DNA from: a virus
Reading direction: 5' to 3' (one strand)
DNA: 64,000 nucleotides
IMG/VR virus record: IMGVR_UViG_3300037483_000793
Coordinates: 32,001-96,000 of that record
Positions within the stretch are counted from its first letter, which is position 1. Every line of letters starts with the position of its first letter. Shown here piece after piece: positions 22,237 through 32,219 of this stretch. The position numbers and the translations under genes are program-made. Under the pieces are notes generated by a model that searched no databases, was not told the origin of the DNA, and was given only the letters and a program-made list of their open reading frames with translations.

Positions 22237-22814
22237 TGGGCATTCTGACGTGGGAGCGCACGGGCGATCTCGTACAGGATTTGAAACTGTATATGGCACA
22301 CCAAGAAGAGATGGCGATTTGGGGGCTCCCTAACTACGTACGTTACCTGCGTGCGATCATCATCAAACTAACGCCGCAGCTTCATCACTGCACCGAGGCC
22401 GTTCTCGACGCCGCTGCTGTCGTGCTCGCAGCGAACGAACCAGCACTGCTGCAGCGGTTCATGACGACGCCGCCGCACGTGCATCCAAAGACGCGTGCGC
22501 TCGTCTCGCGTGAAGCAGCCAATGCAATCTGCGAGGTCATCGGCTGCTGGGCTGGTTGGGACGCACACGCTACCGCCAAGCTCCGTGACAATGATGCAGT
22601 GAACGAACGCGCCAAGGGCGCAGTGCGGCGCATTGAGGGTGACGCGCTCGCTGTTGGGTTGACCCTGAACGATCTCATGGATTGTGCCGTCGATGCGTTC
22701 ACCGACAAAGACATCGACGCAAACCGCCGCGATGCTGCCGTTGCTGCAATGTCTGCTGGGCACTTCAAGCTCGGTAGCCAAATCATCGCCGAAGCGCCCA
22801 GCGACGAGAGCTGA
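22236..22814 (+). CDS. hypothetical protein ending in an AAxxAG helical module
   Basis: TGATG overlap; RRDAAVAAMSAGHFKLGSQII. Confidence 0.65.
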   Translation: MGILTWERTGDLVQDLKLYMAHQEEMAIWGLPNYVRYLRAIIIKLTPQLHHCTEAVLDAAAVVLAANEPALLQRFMTTPPHVHPKTRALVSREAANAICEVIGCWAGWDAHATAKLRDNDAVNERAKGAVRRIEGDALAVGLTLNDLMDCAVDAFTDKDIDANRRDAAVAAMSAGHFKLGSQIIAEAPSDES

Positions 22815-22884
22815 TCGCCGCCGCGATCGTCGAGATCACACCCGCAACACGCTCTTGACAAGTCCCAGCCAAACCGGCTACACG
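22813..22884 (+). promoter_or_regulatory. motif B copy plus sigma70-like promoter TTGACA-18-TACACG
   Basis: GATCGCCGCCGCGATC 22813-22828; CTCTTGACAAGTCCCAGC identical to the 10893 promoter. Confidence 0.65.
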
Positions 22885-22890
22885 CGATAG

Positions 22891-23091
22891 ATGGGCAAGT
22901 TCGAGATTCGCAAGGGACGGACGGGCGCGTTTCGTTTTGTGTTGATCGCCAAGAACGGTGAAGTACTCGCGACCAGCGAGAACTACACGACCAAGGCGAA
23001 GTGTCACAAAGGCATCAACGCCGTGATCGATCTCTTGCTAGGGCTGCCGACGGCATTACCGCCGATCGTCGACACGACGATCAAGAAGTAG
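22891..23091 (+). CDS. YegP/DUF1508 family protein (single domain)
   Basis: KFEIRKGRTGAFRFVLIAKNGEVLATSENYTTKAKCHKGINAV. Confidence 0.88.
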   Translation: MGKFEIRKGRTGAFRFVLIAKNGEVLATSENYTTKAKCHKGINAVIDLLLGLPTALPPIVDTTIKK

Positions 23092-23240
23092 CAACGAGAC
23101 CAAGGAGAACGTCGAGCCTCGGGATAAAGCAACGGCGAAACCGCCCACGGAGTCGACGCCGTGTAGGCACCTCGCTCGCGCAAACAGGTTGATTGGTCGA
23201 CGCCCGAAACCAGACGTGACAGCTTGGAGAGACAGCACTT
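23092..23240 (+). ncRNA. candidate structured intergenic RNA
   Basis: 149 nt gap with CGTCGA/TCGACG stem and GAAA-containing hairpins. Confidence 0.2.
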
Positions 23241-23870
23241 ATGAACATGAGCGACGCCACCGAGTGGCTGAAGATGGCCGTGCAGGACGAAGACGCTGAT
23301 GTCTGGCCACGTATCCGCTGGAAGAACGTCGAGCGTCCTGGCTACTTCGGCAAGCGTCGTGACCTGTCCCATGCACGCTACGATCAGCGGCACGGGCGCC
23401 ACCGCTGGCGTCTCCGCTGGCTGGTCGTGACAACCCCAAGCGCGCAGCCGCTCACGCTCAGCTTCGAGCAAGCGTGCAAGCTGATCTACGAAGAGAGCTA
23501 CTTCCGCTACCTACAGGATCGGCCCGACGATCTCGACTTTATCTGCGAGTTCACGGACTGCATCGACAACGCGCCGACGAACATCCACTCGGGACTCGAC
23601 TACACGGCACAGGAAGCTAGCTCAACACACATTCAGGACATCGCAGTGCGCAACGTGCTCGCGCGGCTCGGTCGTACGTTCACGGGCAATCGCACCGAGC
23701 TTCTCGTGATCCGATCGGCTGACTCGAACGGTTACCGTTTCGGGCCGGGCAACGTACCGCTGTTCGCACCGGATCTCGTCATGCAGCCGTCGCTCGCACC
23801 GTCGTGGGCGAACCCGGGCACCGTCGAGGACTTCTGGCAGTCGAACAAGTGGTTGCAGGTTCACCGATAG
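23241..23870 (+). CDS. hypothetical protein
   Basis: GGAGAG RBS; 209 aa ORF. Confidence 0.7.
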   Translation: MNMSDATEWLKMAVQDEDADVWPRIRWKNVERPGYFGKRRDLSHARYDQRHGRHRWRLRWLVVTTPSAQPLTLSFEQACKLIYEESYFRYLQDRPDDLDFICEFTDCIDNAPTNIHSGLDYTAQEASSTHIQDIAVRNVLARLGRTFTGNRTELLVIRSADSNGYRFGPGNVPLFAPDLVMQPSLAPSWANPGTVEDFWQSNKWLQVHR

Positions 23871-23889
23871 ATCGTGCTAGCCTCGCCGG
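23870..23889 (+). promoter_or_regulatory. -10-like TAGCCT 6 nt before the RF ATG (leaderless-type start)
   Basis: GATC-GTGC-TAGCCT-CGCCGG-ATG, no SD; matches the 3' half of motif B promoters. Confidence 0.4.
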
Positions 23890-24562
23890 ATGCGCAACGC
23901 GGTGATCATCGAGATCCGCGCCGCCGAAGGTGGCGCCGATGCCAAGCTCTTGGTGGAAGAGCAGACGAAGATCTACATCCGGCTGGCAGGCCGGAGGTCA
24001 CTTTGACGTCGAACTCGTAGAGGAACGCAGCGGCCTCACAGTGCTGCGCGTGACCGGCAAGCACGCTGTCGAGACGTTCCAGCACGAGCCCGGCGGCCAT
24101 CGGTGGCAGAGAATTCCACCCACCGAGAAGCGTGGTCGCGTTCAGACGTCGACGATCACGGTAGCTGTCCTGCCTGAGCCTACAGAAGCGCAGATCGTAC
24201 TGCGCGACGGTGATCTCGACTACAAGTTCTGTCGCGGTTCAGGCGCTGGCGGACAGCACAGGAACGTCACGGACAGTGCCGTGGTGCTGACGCACAAACC
24301 GACTGGCGTCGTCGTTCGTTGCGAGAGCGAACGGTCACAGAACGCGAACAAGGAAACGGCACTCGCCGTTCTGCGCGCGCGGATCTGGGAAGTCACGCAG
24401 CTCGCGCTCGACGGCAAGCGTGCCCATCAACGTCGGCAACAGGTCGGCAGCGGCATGCGCGGCGACAAGATCCGGACGATTCGTGTCCGTGACGACGTCG
24501 TGAACGACCACGTGACGGGCCGCCAGTGGAAGTTTCGCGACTACGAACGCGGCAACTGGTAG
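23890..24562 (+). CDS. short class I peptide chain release factor (RF1-type PxT, GGQ, no domain 1), expressed via +1 programmed frameshift; about 223 aa
   Basis: Frame 0 ATG 23890 gives MRNAVIIEIRAAEGGADAKLL...GRRSL then TGA 24004; +1 frame continues DVELVEE...HRWQRIPPTEKRGRVQTST...GSGAGGQHRNVTDSAV...RCESERSQ...GSGMRGDKIRT. Confidence 0.92.
23993..24007 (+). other. prfB/RF2-type +1 ribosomal frameshift cassette
   Basis: GGAGG TCA CTT TGA C: internal SD, 3 nt spacer, slippery CUU-U and weak UGA-C stop, same layout as bacterial prfB (AGGGGG TAT CTT TGA C). Confidence 0.92.
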
Positions 24563-24571
24563 TGTCGACGC

Positions 24572-24799
24572 ATGACGCCGATGCACGGCACCGATCTGGA
24601 AGCGATCGTGACGCTGCTCGAACTCGGTGCGATTGAGCTGACGCCGGACCCGTCGGCGCGCTTCACGTTCGAGCAGCTGCTCGCGGAGGCGCGGCGTTAC
24701 GGCGGCGACGAGATCACGCTCGACGAGCGCGACGTTCGCATCGTGCTCGCGGACATGAAGTCGATCAAGCACGAGCGCGGTCTGTACAAGCTCGTCTAA
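24572..24799 (+). CDS. small hypothetical protein (winged-helix-like)
   Basis: Follows RF; 75 aa. Confidence 0.7.
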   Translation: MTPMHGTDLEAIVTLLELGAIELTPDPSARFTFEQLLAEARRYGGDEITLDERDVRIVLADMKSIKHERGLYKLV

Positions 24800-24870
24800 T
24801 TATGCACGCGTGTAGTCAGCGATAGCGTCGAGCATTTCACGTACCGTCGACGCGCGACGAGCCGGTTATG

Positions 24871-24884
24871 CGGGACTAGTCCCG
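24871..24884. repeat. perfect 14 bp palindrome between convergent genes
   Basis: CGGGACTAGTCCCG. Confidence 0.6.
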
Positions 24885-24885
24885 A

Positions 24886-26145
24886 CTAGACCGGGATCTG
24901 CGCAGCGAGCATCGGATTGAACGCGACGGCTTCGCCAGGCCCACCGGCAGTTCCAGCAGGAGTTGGAATTCCATCGCCAGCGCCGCCTGCGCCGCCACTC
25001 ACGTCGGTCAACCCGAGAAGCGTCATGTTCTCGGTGACAATGAGGATCGAGCCACCCGTACCGCCACCACCACCGCCACCGGGCTCGTTCTCAACCGTAT
25101 CGGCAGCGCCGCCAGCACCGCCGATCGCCCGGATCGATCCGGCGGGCGCGACGATCGTCTTGGCGAAGATCACGAGTGTTCCAGCGCCACCGCCACCACT
25201 GCCGCTACTGCCGCTCACGCCGTTGCCACCACTACCACCGCCGTTGCCGCCACCAATCGCTGTCAACAGTGAGCTGATCGTGATCGCCTGCGACAGCGTG
25301 TATGGCCACGACGGATCAGCCAAGTCGATGCCACCAGCGCCACCCGGTTGCGTCAGGCCGATGGCGCCCGCACCGCCCGTGCCACCCACCCTGGTCGCCG
25401 ACGATTGCGCGGGGCGGTCTGTGCCTCCGATACCAACGTTCCCGGGTCCTGACCCGAAAGGTGGATTGCCTGTCCCGCCGTCGCCGCCGTTGGATGATCC
25501 GATGATCGCGTTCCGGCCGAGTCCCGGCGCAGCCCCCGTGCCACCAGCGCCACCGTTGACGTTGATGTTGCTGCCCGCACCGATCGTGAGCGTGTCCCTG
25601 ACGAAGATCACGACTGCCCGTTGCGTCGCCTGATCCGTGAGACCGCCCACGGTGACACTGTCGCCGGGGCTGATCGTTAGGTTGTCGAAGAACGCGAACG
25701 GTAGCGCCGAACCGACGGGGACTACGGGCGCGCCAGGTGCGCCTGCGAGCGACGTCCATGTTTCGTCACCAGCCGTCACGTAGTCGCCGTACGCACCGTC
25801 GCCATAGATGCTCAGCAGCTGCGACGCCGCGCCGCTACCACCACTGCCGCCCGCGAAGAACAGCGGCGTCAGGCCAATCAACTGCCCCGGCGGTGGGATG
25901 AGCGGCGTGACCGACTCCAGCGTGTGCCAGTATTCGACGTAGACGTTGACGTCCGGATCCGCGCCTGCCAGGCGCGTCGCCGTAACATCGACCGTATCGG
26001 CTGTGATCGTGAAACCGCCTGCGTCGCCGCCGCCGATCTTGGGCATGACCGGCCGACCGTTGACGTTCAGTCGGTGCGGAAGCGATGTGGGCACGCCGAT
26101 AACGAGCCCCGTGAACTGGACGATGTTTTTCAGGATCGTGCCCAT
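24886..26145 (-). CDS. glycine-rich putative virion fibre/surface protein
   Basis: GGxGG repeats alternating with beta-strand motifs (VVIFV, LVIFA, ILIVT); N-domain paralogous to 26460-27080; ATG 26145 follows a TATATT box. Confidence 0.75.
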   Translation of the reverse strand: MGTILKNIVQFTGLVIGVPTSLPHRLNVNGRPVMPKIGGGDAGGFTITADTVDVTATRLAGADPDVNVYVEYWHTLESVTPLIPPPGQLIGLTPLFFAGGSGGSGAASQLLSIYGDGAYGDYVTAGDETWTSLAGAPGAPVVPVGSALPFAFFDNLTISPGDSVTVGGLTDQATQRAVVIFVRDTLTIGAGSNINVNGGAGGTGAAPGLGRNAIIGSSNGGDGGTGNPPFGSGPGNVGIGGTDRPAQSSATRVGGTGGAGAIGLTQPGGAGGIDLADPSWPYTLSQAITISSLLTAIGGGNGGGSGGNGVSGSSGSGGGGAGTLVIFAKTIVAPAGSIRAIGGAGGAADTVENEPGGGGGGGTGGSILIVTENMTLLGLTDVSGGAGGAGDGIPTPAGTAGGPGEAVAFNPMLAAQIPV

Positions 26146-26151
26146 CGGTGT

Positions 26152-26185
26152 AATATACCCCAAAACAGCGATCGCTCACGCGATC
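26152..26185 (-). promoter_or_regulatory. motif B copy plus TATATT -10
   Basis: GATCGCTCACGCGATC 26170-26185; TATATT 6 nt before ATG. Confidence 0.55.
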
Positions 26186-26274
26186 GACGCACGCCAACGT
26201 CATGTCTACACACCCGTTTCCATGCCTCAGCCCCACTACCGCGCGGGTATCGCCCGCGCCTCGTGGAGGCCAAC

Positions 26275-26463
26275 ATGTGGAACAGCAAGCCCAAGAAGTC
26301 AGGATGCGACTGCCGCGGTCGCGCACACGGTAACCCAAAGACGGGCCACGGCCCATGCTACGGCTACAACGACCAGCGTCCCGCCGTCGTACAACGTATC
26401 GCCGGAAAGAAGCTCGTGAAGCGCTGGCTAGTAGCGTGTCGGCTCGATGACGTCGACGACTAG
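26275..26463 (+). CDS. small Cys/His basic protein
   Basis: GGAGG RBS; MWNSKPKKSGCDCRGRAHG... Confidence 0.6.
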   Translation: MWNSKPKKSGCDCRGRAHGNPKTGHGPCYGYNDQRPAVVQRIAGKKLVKRWLVACRLDDVDD

Positions 26464-27080
26464 AAGTTCCTGAACGTCAGGCTGGCGCCGACGCTGAACG
26501 CGAAATCGGTCGGGGCACCCGCTGCGCTGAACGTCCGCACGAGGAGCTGCGAAGTGCTCGCCCACTCGTACGTGATCATGCCCGGCGTCACACCCGTGTT
26601 GAGACCGGGCGCGACGACGACGTTGTCAGTACCGCCGGGGGCAGGCAACGGCACGGTGAGGTTGATCGTGTAGAGACCGGATGCAGGTACGTGCACGATA
26701 CTCGCGACGTTGTACTGTCCAAGCGGCGAACCTGCAGCATCAACATTCGCCTCCATGAACGGAAAGCGATCGCTGCTCGACGCAGGGACGAACGGTCGCG
26801 GAGAGAGGCCTGCAAACGGGTTACCGAAGGCTCGACCGATCTGCCGCGGGATCGAGTGCTTGTGCTCGACCCAGACGTTCGATTGCGTGATCAGCCCGCC
26901 CGTGTTGTTGGTGAACTCGACGATGGTCTCGGTCGCGGACAACCGGATGCCTGCCTGATCAGCCATGAGCAGATCAGGGACCTCGGGCGTACCGTTGATG
27001 TTGATGTTGTGCGGCAGCTGGACGGTCGCGCCGGGTGCCACGTTCGTGAACTGGAGAATCTGAAGAAGCTGCTGCGCCAT
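26460..27080 (-). CDS. putative virion protein, two beta-rich domains
   Basis: N-domain shared with 24886-26145; C-domain with YNVASIVHV...GLYTINL...VRTFS...DFAFSV. Confidence 0.75.
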   Translation of the reverse strand: MAQQLLQILQFTNVAPGATVQLPHNININGTPEVPDLLMADQAGIRLSATETIVEFTNNTGGLITQSNVWVEHKHSIPRQIGRAFGNPFAGLSPRPFVPASSSDRFPFMEANVDAAGSPLGQYNVASIVHVPASGLYTINLTVPLPAPGGTDNVVVAPGLNTGVTPGMITYEWASTSQLLVRTFSAAGAPTDFAFSVGASLTFRNF

Positions 27081-27086
27081 GCCCCG

Positions 27087-27121
27087 AATGTACGCCTTTG
27101 TGGCCGATCGCGCGAGCGATC
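27087..27121 (-). promoter_or_regulatory. motif B copy plus TACATT -10
   Basis: GATCGCGCGAGCGATC 27106-27121; TACATT 6 nt before ATG 27080. Confidence 0.55.
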
Positions 27122-27123
27122 AC

Positions 27124-27354
27124 CTACCAACCGTCGAGCCGGACGAACAGATGAAACGTGCACGGCGGGAACGGACATACGTACGACGGCGAGACCGTAC
27201 CGTCGTCGGCGACCATGTGATTGCGCCCAACCATCGAGACCTTGCCGCAGTTCGGGCACACGCACTCGGCCCAGAACCGCTGCGTCGGCGTCTTCAGGTG
27301 GTATCGCCGCCAGATCTCTGTGATGCGTCGATAGGTACCCGGCTCGGTCGGCAT
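27124..27354 (-). CDS. small zinc-finger protein
   Basis: CPNCG...NHMVADDGTVSPSYVCPFPPCTFHLFVRLDGW. Confidence 0.7.
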   Translation of the reverse strand: MPTEPGTYRRITEIWRRYHLKTPTQRFWAECVCPNCGKVSMVGRNHMVADDGTVSPSYVCPFPPCTFHLFVRLDGW

Positions 27355-27427
27355 CGCACGCGAATCGGCACGACGAAACACGTACACGATCTTCGTGTAC
27401 GCTCGAAGCGTGTTGCAGCGCAAGGAC

Positions 27428-28156
27428 ATGTACGAGTTGTCCGATCCGCTCAGCCCGCTTGCGCGCGCTGAGGAGCGACAGATCATGCTCGATCTACTCG
27501 ATGTGCAACCGCACCACGTCGTCGTCGACGTCCCAGCGTGGACTGGCTATCTCGCCGAGGGCATCACGAACATCGTCGACCCCAAACAGATCATGTGCGT
27601 CGAAGCGTCGCCGCGCTTCGCCGCAGGTATCTCACCGCGGTTCGATGCGCGCTGCACGTCGCAGATAACCATCCCGATGGCCAATGCGCACGCCGATCGC
27701 CTCGGCAGTCTCGTCGGCATGCATCACTTGCCCGACAAGCTCGCGTTCATCCGCGAGTGCACGCGCGTCGTGAAGCCCGGCGGTCGGCTCGCATTCAGTG
27801 AAGTCGTCGTCGACTCACCCGTCGCCGAGTTCTTGAACGGCCCCGTGCATCGCTACACGACCAACGGTCACAAGGGCGCGTTCGTCAAACCGGGCGAGCT
27901 GTACGACCTCTTGTGGGCTGCAGGCTGCAACAGCATCACCGAGCGCGTCTGCCACCTGTTCTGGGTGTTCTCGTCGCTCGACGAGCTTGCGCGCTTCGCG
28001 CGCGGCTTGCTTGGCTTAGCACGAGCGACCGAGGCACAGACACTGACGGCGATCCGCGAGTACTTCGAGCTGGCCATCACGGTGCAGCCCGATGGAACGA
28101 TCACACAGGTGAAGTTGCCGTGGTCGCTCGCGTACGTCGTCGGAGTGCGATCGTGA
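27428..28156 (+). CDS. class I SAM-dependent methyltransferase
   Basis: VVVDVPAWTGYL, ADRLGSLVGMHH, RECTRVVKPGGRLAF. Confidence 0.85.
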   Translation: MYELSDPLSPLARAEERQIMLDLLDVQPHHVVVDVPAWTGYLAEGITNIVDPKQIMCVEASPRFAAGISPRFDARCTSQITIPMANAHADRLGSLVGMHHLPDKLAFIRECTRVVKPGGRLAFSEVVVDSPVAEFLNGPVHRYTTNGHKGAFVKPGELYDLLWAAGCNSITERVCHLFWVFSSLDELARFARGLLGLARATEAQTLTAIREYFELAITVQPDGTITQVKLPWSLAYVVGVRS

Positions 28157-28464
28157 CCGTCGCAGACGGACGCTGCTTCCCGTGGGCGTACGAGAACCTG
28201 CCCGACGCGAGCAACGCGCGCCTCGTGCACGCGACTGTCCACGATCCGTGGTCCGGCAAGCCGTACCTGCACGCGTGGATCGAACGTGTCGGCCGCGTCT
28301 ACGACTGGCAGTCGGTCGAGCGGGGCATGGGACCGGGCGCCCGTGGCTGGGGCAAGAAGAAGTTCTACGCCGCGTACAGGCCCGTCGATGTCAAGGTGTA
28401 CGACTACGAAGCGGCGCAGGAACGCCCGTGGCTGAGCCACGGACCGGGAAAACTCGTTCGCTGA
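28153..28464 (+). CDS. phage hypothetical protein with Cys...His...HAW (papain/transglutaminase-like signature)
   Basis: GRCFPWAY...LVHATV...HAWIE; GTGA overlap. Confidence 0.7.
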   Translation: MTVADGRCFPWAYENLPDASNARLVHATVHDPWSGKPYLHAWIERVGRVYDWQSVERGMGPGARGWGKKKFYAAYRPVDVKVYDYEAAQERPWLSHGPGKLVR

Positions 28465-28504
28465 CGATTTCCTGCAACAAACAGCTCGCTCGCGCACATA
28501 GAGA

Positions 28505-28607
28505 AGTGACGGCGAGGAGCGGGCGTTGCACACCGGAGTAGCTACTCGGTGTTCGGCGAACGTGGGGTCAACGAACGGGAAAGCCTAGCCCTGACCTCGC
28601 CGTCACT
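28505..28607. ncRNA. candidate structured RNA between convergent genes
   Basis: Perfect 13 bp outer stem AGTGACGGCGAGG/CCTCGCCGTCACT enclosing further hairpins. Confidence 0.45.
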
Positions 28608-28636
28608 GCACGTAAGCCAGAGCGCGGAGCGCCGAG

Positions 28637-29014
28637 CTACAGCTTCTTCGCGCAGTCGACGCAGAGATCCGGCGCAGTCTTCGCGGGACCGTCGATTTGA
28701 TTGACGAAGCGCCAACCTTGCGCCAGCAGTTGAAACCAAGCCGCTCCGCGGCTCTGGCCTATGACAGTGCTGCTTGCGCCGCAGCGATCACACGTGATCG
28801 TCAGCTCGACGTGATCAGCCATCTTGAACTTCGTCGGCCTGTCATCGTGGTCATGGCACAGGAACGGCCCGTCGGGCAGGCGCGGATCGTCTTTCGCAAC
28901 GAAGAACGACATCCGGCAGTCGCCGCGTGAACAGTCCACGGTCACGTGGGGTGCGTTCGGATCGGGCGGGCCTTCGAGCGGTGAGAGGTATCGATTGTCG
29001 TCGTCGTTCGGCAT
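28637..29014 (-). CDS. Cys-rich hypothetical protein
   Basis: CDRC...CVDC; ATG abuts upstream TAG. Confidence 0.7.
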   Translation of the reverse strand: MPNDDDNRYLSPLEGPPDPNAPHVTVDCSRGDCRMSFFVAKDDPRLPDGPFLCHDHDDRPTKFKMADHVELTITCDRCGASSTVIGQSRGAAWFQLLAQGWRFVNQIDGPAKTAPDLCVDCAKKL

Positions 29015-29278
29015 CTACTTCCCTTGGTCGTCCGGGTCCACCGGCAGTCCCGGCAGCTTCTCACGACACTTCGGGCACGTCATCGTCAACGTCGTTTTCG
29101 CGATGCGGCCACCCGAGTACAGCCAGCCGGACAGTGTCAGCCAGCGCATCACGAACGCTTTGGGGTCGGTGACGTGTCGGCCGAAGCCGAATGCTCCGTT
29201 CGCGTGCAGCTCGTGCTGTGCGTACGTCGCCGAGATGCGCACCGAGTTGCTGCAGTAACCGCAGTCGACGCGAAACAC
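29015..29278 (-). CDS. zinc-ribbon protein
   Basis: TAGTG overlap; CGYC...CPKC. Confidence 0.6.
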   Translation of the reverse strand: MFRVDCGYCSNSVRISATYAQHELHANGAFGFGRHVTDPKAFVMRWLTLSGWLYSGGRIAKTTLTMTCPKCREKLPGLPVDPDDQGK

Positions 29279-29532
29279 TACGTGCTGACCGTACCGATGT
29301 GCGTGCGTGCGAGCTTGCGGCCCGTCAACTTGAAGTACTTGACGTCGTCGCGCCGCGGCCACGTGAAGCCGCACATGCGCGGGTTCGGGTAGTCGCCGAT
29401 CATGCCGTGGCAGTGGCCCGTGCCGCTCTGTGGATCGTCGAGCGCGCCCATGTCGAGCGACGTTCCAAACTCCAAGCCGCCGCAGCGCGGGCATTTGAAC
29501 TGCGTCTCGGCGATCAGGGCGTCGTTCGGCAT
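29278..29532 (-). CDS. zinc-ribbon protein
   Basis: CPRCGG...CHG...CGFTWPRRDD. Confidence 0.65.
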   Translation of the reverse strand: MPNDALIAETQFKCPRCGGLEFGTSLDMGALDDPQSGTGHCHGMIGDYPNPRMCGFTWPRRDDVKYFKLTGRKLARTHIGTVST

Positions 29533-31281: not shown

Positions 31282-32219
31282 CCGACCGCGACCTCAAGCC
31301 CGTGAAGCCGAACCTGCTCGACGAGGCGATCGCCCGCAACCTCGATCTCGGCGATCGCACGCGTGAGCTGTACCGCGAATGCCTCGCAGACTTCATCGCG
31401 TTCGCGGGGACCGATCCACAGGGCTGGAACTACGGCGCCGTCGAGGACTGGCTCGGCCGCCTGCTGGCGTCCGGTCGCACGGTCGCCTCGCGCAAGCGCG
31501 GCAAGTGCTCGACGCAAACCGTCGGCGTCTACCGCAAGGCGATTCGCTGCGCGAGCCGCCAGTACGCGCGGCGGCAGGGCCGCCAGGAACTCGACTTCGC
31601 GCGTGACATCGGAAAGATCAAGACGAAGCCGAGTGCTGCACGTGAGCCGCTGACGTACGAAGAGGCGGGCAAGCTGCTCGACACGTGCGTGGGCAACATG
31701 CCGGTCAACATCCGCGACCGCGCGCTGATCGTGCTCGCGCTGCGCTCTGGCTTACGTCGCGGCGGGCTGCACGCGCTCAAGATCGAGAACATCCGACCGC
31801 CGAAGATCACGACGCGCAACAAGGGTGGCGATCCGATCACGTTCGAAGCTGACGACGAAACGTTTGCTGTCGTCGGCGAGTGGCTGCAACTGCTCGCGGT
31901 CGCTGGTCACAAGACCGGTTCCGTGTTTCGTGATACGTGGGCTGCGAACGACGGCACGACGCAGATCGGCGAGCCGCTCACACCGTATCAGCTGTGGCGC
32001 GTGTTCAAGAGTCGCGCGAAGCGCGCCGGGATACGTCACGTGTTCCCGCACCTCGCACGGCACAGCACGGTCACGTGGCTGCGTGAAGAAGGTAAGAGCG
32101 CCGCCGAGGTCAGCAAGCTGACCGGGCAGACCGAACGAACGATCGAAAACATCTACACGCATGTGCGTACGCGCGGCGCCGTCAGTGCGGCGTTGCCGTC
32201 GCTGGTGAAGAAGCCATGA
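31278..32219 (+). CDS. tyrosine recombinase/integrase (XerC/D-like)
   Basis: RDRALIVLALRSGLRRGGL, NKGG, FPHLARHS, LTGQ, NIYTH; SAM-like N-domain. Confidence 0.9.
   Translation: MTDRDLKPVKPNLLDEAIARNLDLGDRTRELYRECLADFIAFAGTDPQGWNYGAVEDWLGRLLASGRTVASRKRGKCSTQTVGVYRKAIRCASRQYARRQGRQELDFARDIGKIKTKPSAAREPLTYEEAGKLLDTCVGNMPVNIRDRALIVLALRSGLRRGGLHALKIENIRPPKITTRNKGGDPITFEADDETFAVVGEWLQLLAVAGHKTGSVFRDTWAANDGTTQIGEPLTPYQLWRVFKSRAKRAGIRHVFPHLARHSTVTWLREEGKSAAEVSKLTGQTERTIENIYTHVRTRGAVSAALPSLVKKP

Follow-up and report, generated by a model that had tools for sequence, protein, structure and literature searches.

A prfB-type frameshift signal in an RF1-type release factor gene of large phages

Background

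The +1 frameshift of prfB, the gene for release factor 2 (RF2), is the textbook example of autoregulatory recoding and has been described as a peculiarity of RF2. While UGA occupies the A site, the ribosome may either terminate or let the P-site tRNA-Leu slip from CUU to UUU, the slip being aided by pairing of a Shine-Dalgarno (SD) sequence with 16S rRNA; in a bacterium with the standard code only RF2 terminates at UGA. What, then, is the same signal doing in a viral gene whose product resembles RF1, and what would such a gate sense? The question is raised by a gene at positions 23890-24562 of a 64-kb stretch of DNA (the window, positions 32,001 to 96,000 of IMG/VR record IMGVR_UViG_3300037483_000793). 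An earlier note on this DNA had read the locus as a cross-wired switch by which a shortage of host RF2 induces a viral RF1-like or ribosome-rescue factor; it had called for homologues to be collected and searched for SD-N3-CTTTGAC, and had considered that the frameshift might be a random one absent from homologues, or that phylogeny might place the protein in RF2.

Layout of the gene and its recoding site

The release factor gene lies on the + strand and is divided between two reading frames. Its frame-0 part (23890-24003, from the ATG at 23890) comprises codons 1-38 including the slip codon, encodes the first strand and helix alpha-5 of release factor domain 2 (EIRAAEGG motif), and matches the C-terminal part of Pfam PCRF and RF1 from about residue 105-113. 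An internal SD-like GGAGG (23993-23997) lies 3 nt (a TCA spacer) to the 5' side of the slip codon CTT (24001-24003, Leu38), whose P-site tRNA would re-pair on TTT after a +1 shift. The gate stop TGA (24004-24006) is followed by C at +4 (24007), a weak termination context. The +1-frame part (24005-24562) opens with GAC at 24005, comprises codons 39-223 and ends at its own stop, TAG (24560-24562). According to Pfam, alignment to solved RF1 structures and a fold search, it holds the remainder of domain 2/4 and the GGQ domain 3, with a decoding tripeptide PPT of the RF1 PxT type (residues 76-78, 24116-24124), which aligns with PVT of Thermotoga RF1, and the GGQ catalytic motif (residues 120-122, 24248-24256), which is invariant in the family alignment. 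With CTT-T read as one step, the two parts give a fused product of 223 aa with no further stop. Every element of this layout, as first described in the earlier note, was found in its place when the sequence and ORFs were read again.

The sequence features of a prfB-type cassette are found here: an SD at 3 nt, CUU-U followed by a stop codon and a weak +4 base, and a +1 frame that continues the same protein, the signal being conserved among homologues. In the 64-kb window the 15-nt pattern GGAGGNNNCTTTGAC has a single occurrence as against 0.00 expected (100 shuffles), and the same cassette search pattern finds E. coli prfB. CTT accounts for only 6.5% of leucine codons in long ORFs of the 196-kb phage. 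Stimulatory RNA structure was sought as well, but there are no consensus pairs across 17 diverse sites and the z-score at the window's site is -0.45; a conserved RNA structure is thus no more to be found at the phage sites than in bacterial prfB. Internal initiation from the GGAGG, considered as an alternative to slippage, is unlikely, as the first start in the body frame lies about 45 nt downstream and its use would remove helix alpha-5. Both the layout and the relatives described below support the claim that the gene needs a prfB-type +1 slip at SD-N3-CTT-TGA-C.

Identity of the 223-residue product

Pfam recognizes in the fused product the C-terminal half of PCRF (residues 3-91) and the RF-1 (GGQ) domain (residues 100-207). 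Among NCBI curated profiles, RF1 scores highest with 214 and 209 bits (TIGR00019 and NF001859, cut-offs 423 and 400), followed by RF2 with 143 (TIGR00020, cut-off 370), PrfH with 82 (TIGR03072, cut-off 166.65) and ArfB with 39 (NF006718, cut-off 100), all of them below the cut-offs. The RF1 match spans only positions 105-325, and the product does not qualify as a full-length RF1 with domain 1; because the match begins only at about RF1 position 105-113, domain 1 must be absent from the phage product, and for the same reason the RF1 scores fall to about half of the curated cut-offs. Domain 1 has been reported as non-essential for release function (PMC1586002).

Structural and phylogenetic comparisons agree with the profiles. 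Sequence matches to solved structures are best for Thermotoga RF1 (159 bits), then for Thermus and E. coli RF1 (about 141), RF2 (about 98) and PrfH (about 46). A tree was built from 103 rows, namely unique phage relatives, 26 bacterial RF1, six RF2 and E. coli PrfH. In it RF2 is set apart from RF1 and the phage family together with 100% SH-aLRT support, and the phage family is united in a clade of 67 rows with 96% support; PrfH is on a very long branch, and its placement there carries no meaning. In an AlphaFold model of the fused product built from 18 relatives (mean pLDDT 81), ten-residue blocks around the junction average 88-95, and the junction is a turn between a helix of residues 16-35 (pLDDT 89-95) and a strand of residues 39-46. 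A fold search with this model returns RF1 chains as the best matches (E about 1e-21 to 1e-19), RF2 next, and PrfH with 1.5e-12.

Bacterial RF1 (prfA) is therefore the closest known relative by profile, sequence and fold, and the phage product shares with it the PxT tripeptide, GGQ, and the Gln and Thr that flank the decoding loop. It differs from bacterial RF1 in lacking domain 1, in belonging to a separate clade found almost only in phages, and in having Asp in place of the conserved Glu of helix alpha-5, a departure common to the family; this copy and many relatives also have Gln instead of His before Thr-Ser. Given such departures at conserved decoding positions, the RF1-like stop specificity of the phage factor is an assumption.

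Two other identities were weighed. The gene is not an ordinary prfB, to judge from an RF2 score (142.6 bits against 370) far below the cut-off, a tripeptide that is PPT and not SPF, and a tree that excludes the protein from the RF2 clade with 100% support. The ribosome-rescue role allowed for in the earlier note also finds little to recommend it. A stop-independent factor like PrfH or ArfB would release ribosomes that host defence nucleases have stalled or damaged, its gate reporting translational distress, and such a role would suit the absence of domain 1, as in PrfH (PMC1586002), and the loss or shortening of the PxT loop in a few relatives. PrfH, which is defined by a missing domain 1, an SxY tripeptide and linkage to RtcB (PMC1586002), resembles the phage product also in retaining a decoding-type domain and GGQ and in its length of about 200-220 aa. 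However, the phage product scores only 81.7 bits against 166.65 with the PrfH profile, has PPT and not SxY, matches the solved PrfH far more weakly than RF1, and is encoded in a genome of 195,792 bp with no match to RtcB anywhere; the ArfB profile (39.2 bits against 100) matches over the GGQ stretch only, and a complete decoding domain is present. Moreover, no gene is a conserved neighbour over the 70 loci compared, and the family alignment shows almost no variation in the stop-decoding elements. We regard a rescue function as very improbable.

Profiles, tree and model together mark the predicted product as an RF1-derived minimal class-I release factor without domain 1, to the exclusion of RF2, PrfH and ArfB. 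The RF1-type assignment made earlier (PxT, no SPF, domain 1 absent) is borne out by profiles, tree and fold search.

Conservation of the gate among relatives

Thousands of matches were obtained by a protein search over 5.8 billion proteins. The best 120, which were examined, consist of 46 single ORFs of about 222 aa and 74 fragments that start at or past the junction, 59 of the latter opening with the +1-frame reading of the cassette itself. No gap opens at the junction when uninterrupted relatives of 72-73% identity are aligned, so that the slip would restore the family sequence letter for letter. The database representative of the gene at 23890-24562 is a fragment of 173 aa, and the family is systematically mis-annotated in viral databases because gene callers cut the genes.

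Two scans of IMG/VR yielded 160 loci, mostly on contigs of 100-460 kb; after the window, a megaphage record and a MAG contig had been added and duplicates removed, 114 unique genes were classified according to which frames hold the N-terminal motif and GGQ. A +1 slip is needed in 67 of the 114, 40 have an in-frame stop, six are plain, and one is a misclassified duplicate. The slip codon is CTT in all 67 frameshifted genes. The gate stop varies among them (TGA in 51, TAG in 14 and TAA in two), the +4 base after it is C in 49, and upstream of CTT there is GGAGG or GGGGG at exactly 3 nt in 46, another SD-like run in 12 and none in nine. The closest relatives (83-88% identity) share the cassette, and the plain relative L299 (73% identity) has CTC at the site, one base fewer (the extra T is missing) and a degraded SD.

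These relatives bear directly on whether the arrangement is an artefact, the extra T being an assembly error or the gene a pseudogene. The gene does come from a single contig derived from a metagenome, and gene callers do split it, but the extra base is found again, in the same codon context, in 67 unique genes that come from independent samples, and both frames are open and conserved there. Because the cassette is common to the closest relatives and conserved throughout the family, assembly error and gene decay are excluded as its source; we give practically no weight to an artefact, to decay or to the ordinary prfB dismissed above. The random frameshift that the earlier note had envisaged is likewise not what the homologues reveal. 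As far as comparison of genes can tell, the full-length product requires a programmed +1 frameshift at SD-N3-CUU-UGA-C that would rebuild the complete domain 2, and the pattern of conservation indicates strong purifying selection on the cassette in a large family that is nearly confined to phages. Nearly all relatives from viral contigs carry a stop-codon gate, only six of 114 being plain; yet 46 of the 120 closest protein relatives are plain single ORFs, by which the gate appears to be dispensable.

Other gate positions and in-frame stops

Across the family the cassette is seen at three different places in the gene. In L045 (3975-4003) and L060 (3970-4003), a leader ORF of 6-8 codons ends in SD-N3-CTT-TGA-C and the whole factor is in the +1 frame; L199, a relative of 77% identity, is without the cassette. 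In L162, from a Hydrogenophilales MAG contig, the cassette lies about 10 codons downstream of the usual site.

Another solution is an early stop codon with the body of the gene in the same frame. In 29 unique genes (56-100% mutual identity) the frame is interrupted by a single TGA (context GGC-TGA-A/G) a codon ahead of the usual slip site, at the position that corresponds to Trp in RF1 and to the CTT codon of the gene at 23890-24562. Each of the 29 has exactly one TGA, and 2-3 TGG codons elsewhere. Other relatives with in-frame stops have TGA or TAG a few codons away from the usual site, and L238 (IMGVR_UViG_3300031787_000018) has two, TGA and TAG, both no more than 10 codons from the usual gate region, which could be double gating or decay.

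A genome-wide reassignment of TGA to Trp was considered as the origin of the in-frame TGA forms and was rejected for the one whole genome checked, a complete genome of 364 kb containing L075: ORFs cover 83% of it under the standard code, and none of its 45 tRNAs has a UCA anticodon. DnaB-type helicase frames are open in the L075 phage and in three other gated phages; a first, crude comparison of ORF coverage on 8-kb loci was uninformative on the question of the code. The array of 45 tRNA genes in the L075 genome (G007:C1:225695-240882) begins about 4 kb from the gated release factor gene and one of its members is tRNA-like, with an anticodon loop of 8 nt (tttc; 227532-227606).

Genome, neighbours and distribution

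The window is part of a single viral contig of 195,792 bp with 62% GC, estimated by the collection to be about 90% complete, which reads well under the standard code and contains two tRNA genes but no second release factor gene. The two tRNA genes are adjacent and lie outside the window (G000:C1:165980-166157); one is tRNA-Met(CAT), and its companion is an unusual tRNA-like gene whose anticodon loop has 6 nt (GA/GAA) and whose acceptor stem contains two mismatches.

No related DNA was found among GenBank phage records, and no relative above 50% identity among 50,697 of them; the only match of this kind, at 47% identity, is in the metagenomic megaphage LR745208.1, which has the same cassette. 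Among the best 80 matches in bacterial species representatives, 25 that were examined are full-length RF1 of about 360 aa, and one further match is the frameshifted L162. One of 151 Myxococcota genomes contains a member of the family (L284, G124:C61), which has CTT-TGA-C at the usual site and lacks an SD-like run upstream.

No partner gene is conserved, the largest cluster of neighbours occurring in nine of 70 loci. The neighbours that do recur beside the release factor gene in related loci are homing endonucleases of the HNH and GIY-YIG types, for example at L019:6707-7651 and L060:387-1819, in unrelated phages, and they may help the gene to move between genomes. In the window itself the neighbours belong to no informative family: the upstream gene (23241-23870, 209 aa) and the downstream gene (24572-24799, 75 aa) have no Pfam or PHROG match. 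Two genes upstream of the release factor gene is a small DUF1508 (YegP-like) protein (window 22891-23091).

By crude gene calls, about 50% of the phage's genes end in TGA, 30-35% in TAG and about 15% in TAA, with mild clustering of those that end in TAG (runs test, p about 0.04). The stretch surrounding the release factor gene (window 22368-29532) has 10 genes out of 13 ending in TAG, also by crude gene calls. The notion that a supplementary RF1-type factor would serve TAG-ending genes is suggestive only.

What the gate may sense

If the cassette works as in prfB, slow termination at the UGA gate would yield more of the full-length factor, and fast termination would leave only a peptide of 38 residues. 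The factor would be expected to read UAA and UAG as RF1 does and to work without recycling by RF3, and it may supplement termination in a phage about a third of whose genes end in TAG. The gate would tie synthesis of the factor to the termination efficiency of the infected cell, which in this copy it would read out through RF2.

The cross-wiring from RF2 to RF1 proposed in the earlier note thus fits this copy mechanically, its UGA gate being readable only by host RF2 and its predicted product being of RF1 type, and in this copy the regulatory logic of the gate appears to differ from that of prfB. As a general design it is not supported. The gate stops of relatives are swapped among TGA, TAG and TAA: on the tree, TAG gates are scattered among TGA gates with 11 changes for 12 TAG rows, which is no better than shuffled labels. 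The gate stop shows no association with the decoding tripeptide (PPT is the commonest in every gate class, with fewer PPN, SPT or shortened loops) or with the GC content of the gene. This scatter, together with the independence from the decoding loop, argues against tuning to one particular release factor, and with 40 in-frame stops and nine of 67 cassettes without an SD, dedicated RF2 sensing finds no support as the design of the family. Because relatives use TGA, TAG, TAA or an in-frame stop interchangeably, the gate is better seen as a general link to termination efficiency; we read the conserved principle as a gate at any early stop that would open when termination is slow, and not as an RF2-specific circuit. 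On the genes and their comparison, we consider it probable that this is a working phage gene for a minimal RF1-type factor, in which a stop-codon gate couples synthesis to the termination efficiency of the infected cell.

The main rival to this reading is that the gate merely holds a potentially harmful factor at a low and roughly constant fraction of initiations, any sensing of release factors being an unselected side effect. Overproduced release factors are known to reduce fitness, strongly in the case of RF2 and modestly in that of RF1 (PMC12421855), and a fixed limiter would account for the interchange of gate stops among close relatives, for the nine cassettes without an SD and for the existence of plain forms; the 40 in-frame-stop forms, too, would probably let only a small fraction of ribosomes pass. 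Yet each independent solution, whether at one of three frameshift positions or at one of several in-frame positions, puts a stop codon in the A site, and no member of the family uses a slip site on a sense codon or a -1 heptamer. Output would be limited more cheaply by a weak promoter or ribosome-binding site, and by the established prfB mechanism the yield of the cassette must depend on the rate of termination. A constant limiter is therefore, in our estimation, rather unlikely.

The second rival is true autoregulation, the counterpart of prfB, in which the phage factor would terminate at its own gate stop, UGA included, through an altered decoding that makes it omnipotent or shifts its specificity. 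The only well-described use of the cassette is release factor autoregulation (PMC12421855; PMC5009743), all three stops serve as gates, and the family has conserved departures that might be relevant, namely Asp for Glu at the tip of helix alpha-5, His/Gln variation and PPT, PPN or SPT as tripeptides. Work on the tripeptide anticodon has established that Pro as the first residue excludes G at the second position of the stop codon. The phage tripeptide does begin with Pro, as in RF1, and it is not associated with the gate stop; the family groups with RF1 and not with RF2, and TGA dominates among the gates although an RF1-type factor should not read it. We consider true autoregulation a poor prospect, less probable than the constant limiter.

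The coupling of synthesis to termination efficiency, which remains our preferred reading, might be taken a step further, tentatively: the release factor of huge phages would be a termination homeostat that reads whichever host release factor is limiting, the several gate forms suggest more than one origin, and in some lineages the gate would close an amber (RF1) autoregulatory loop. Such a loop, to our knowledge, has long been said not to exist.

Comparison with known systems

The phage site matches bacterial prfB in every part of the signal: an SD-like GGAGG separated by 3 nt from a P-site CUU, an A-site stop codon with C at +4, and a functional gene body in the +1 frame. It differs in that the gene is of RF1 and not RF2 type; in its location in domain 2, aligned with an RF1 Trp, whereas the prfB site is at codon 26 in domain 1 (PMC5009743); in the use of TAG as the gate in 14 of 67 family members, as against none of 8,164 prfB motifs (PMC12421855); and in that the product of this copy would not be expected to read its own gate codon. 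The survey of more than 12,000 genomes from which the last count is taken (2025) reported no programmed frameshift in bacterial prfA (PMC12421855). According to a review of 2016, no release factor gene (RF2) is known to have an early in-frame stop and a body that continues in the same frame, and a UAG/RF1 counterpart is not known either (PMC5009743).

Viral release factor genes have been described in two other settings. A giant amoeba-virus release factor gene expressed by way of readthrough and frameshifting is mentioned in that review (PMC5009743, its reference 349); going by this mention, it too is a viral termination factor whose synthesis needs stop-codon recoding, but its host is eukaryotic. 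RF1 and RF2 genes have been reported in the huge and stop-codon-recoded phages Lak, Agate and Jade (PMC7162821; bioRxiv 10.1101/2021.08.26.457843), which are likewise class-I release factors borne by very large phage genomes. They are discussed there within a genome-wide change of code, whereas the present phage and one related whole genome use the standard code, and neither report mentions truncation or recoding of the release factor gene itself. The full texts that were searched contain no description of a gated RF1-type phage gene of this sort, in agreement with the earlier note, which had known of none.

Significance

The site is, on the strength of its layout and conservation, best regarded as a genuine site of programmed recoding in an RF1-type gene of a phage, and as a new use of a known prfB-type signal. 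The phage family combines in an RF1-type gene both the frameshift gate and the in-frame early stop, with UGA, UAG and UAA versions side by side, and so supplies a set of natural variants with which to ask what the cassette actually senses. It also provides a class of minimal release factors for which domain 1 and RF3 may be unnecessary, and the gate may represent a new way for large phages to take control of host translation.
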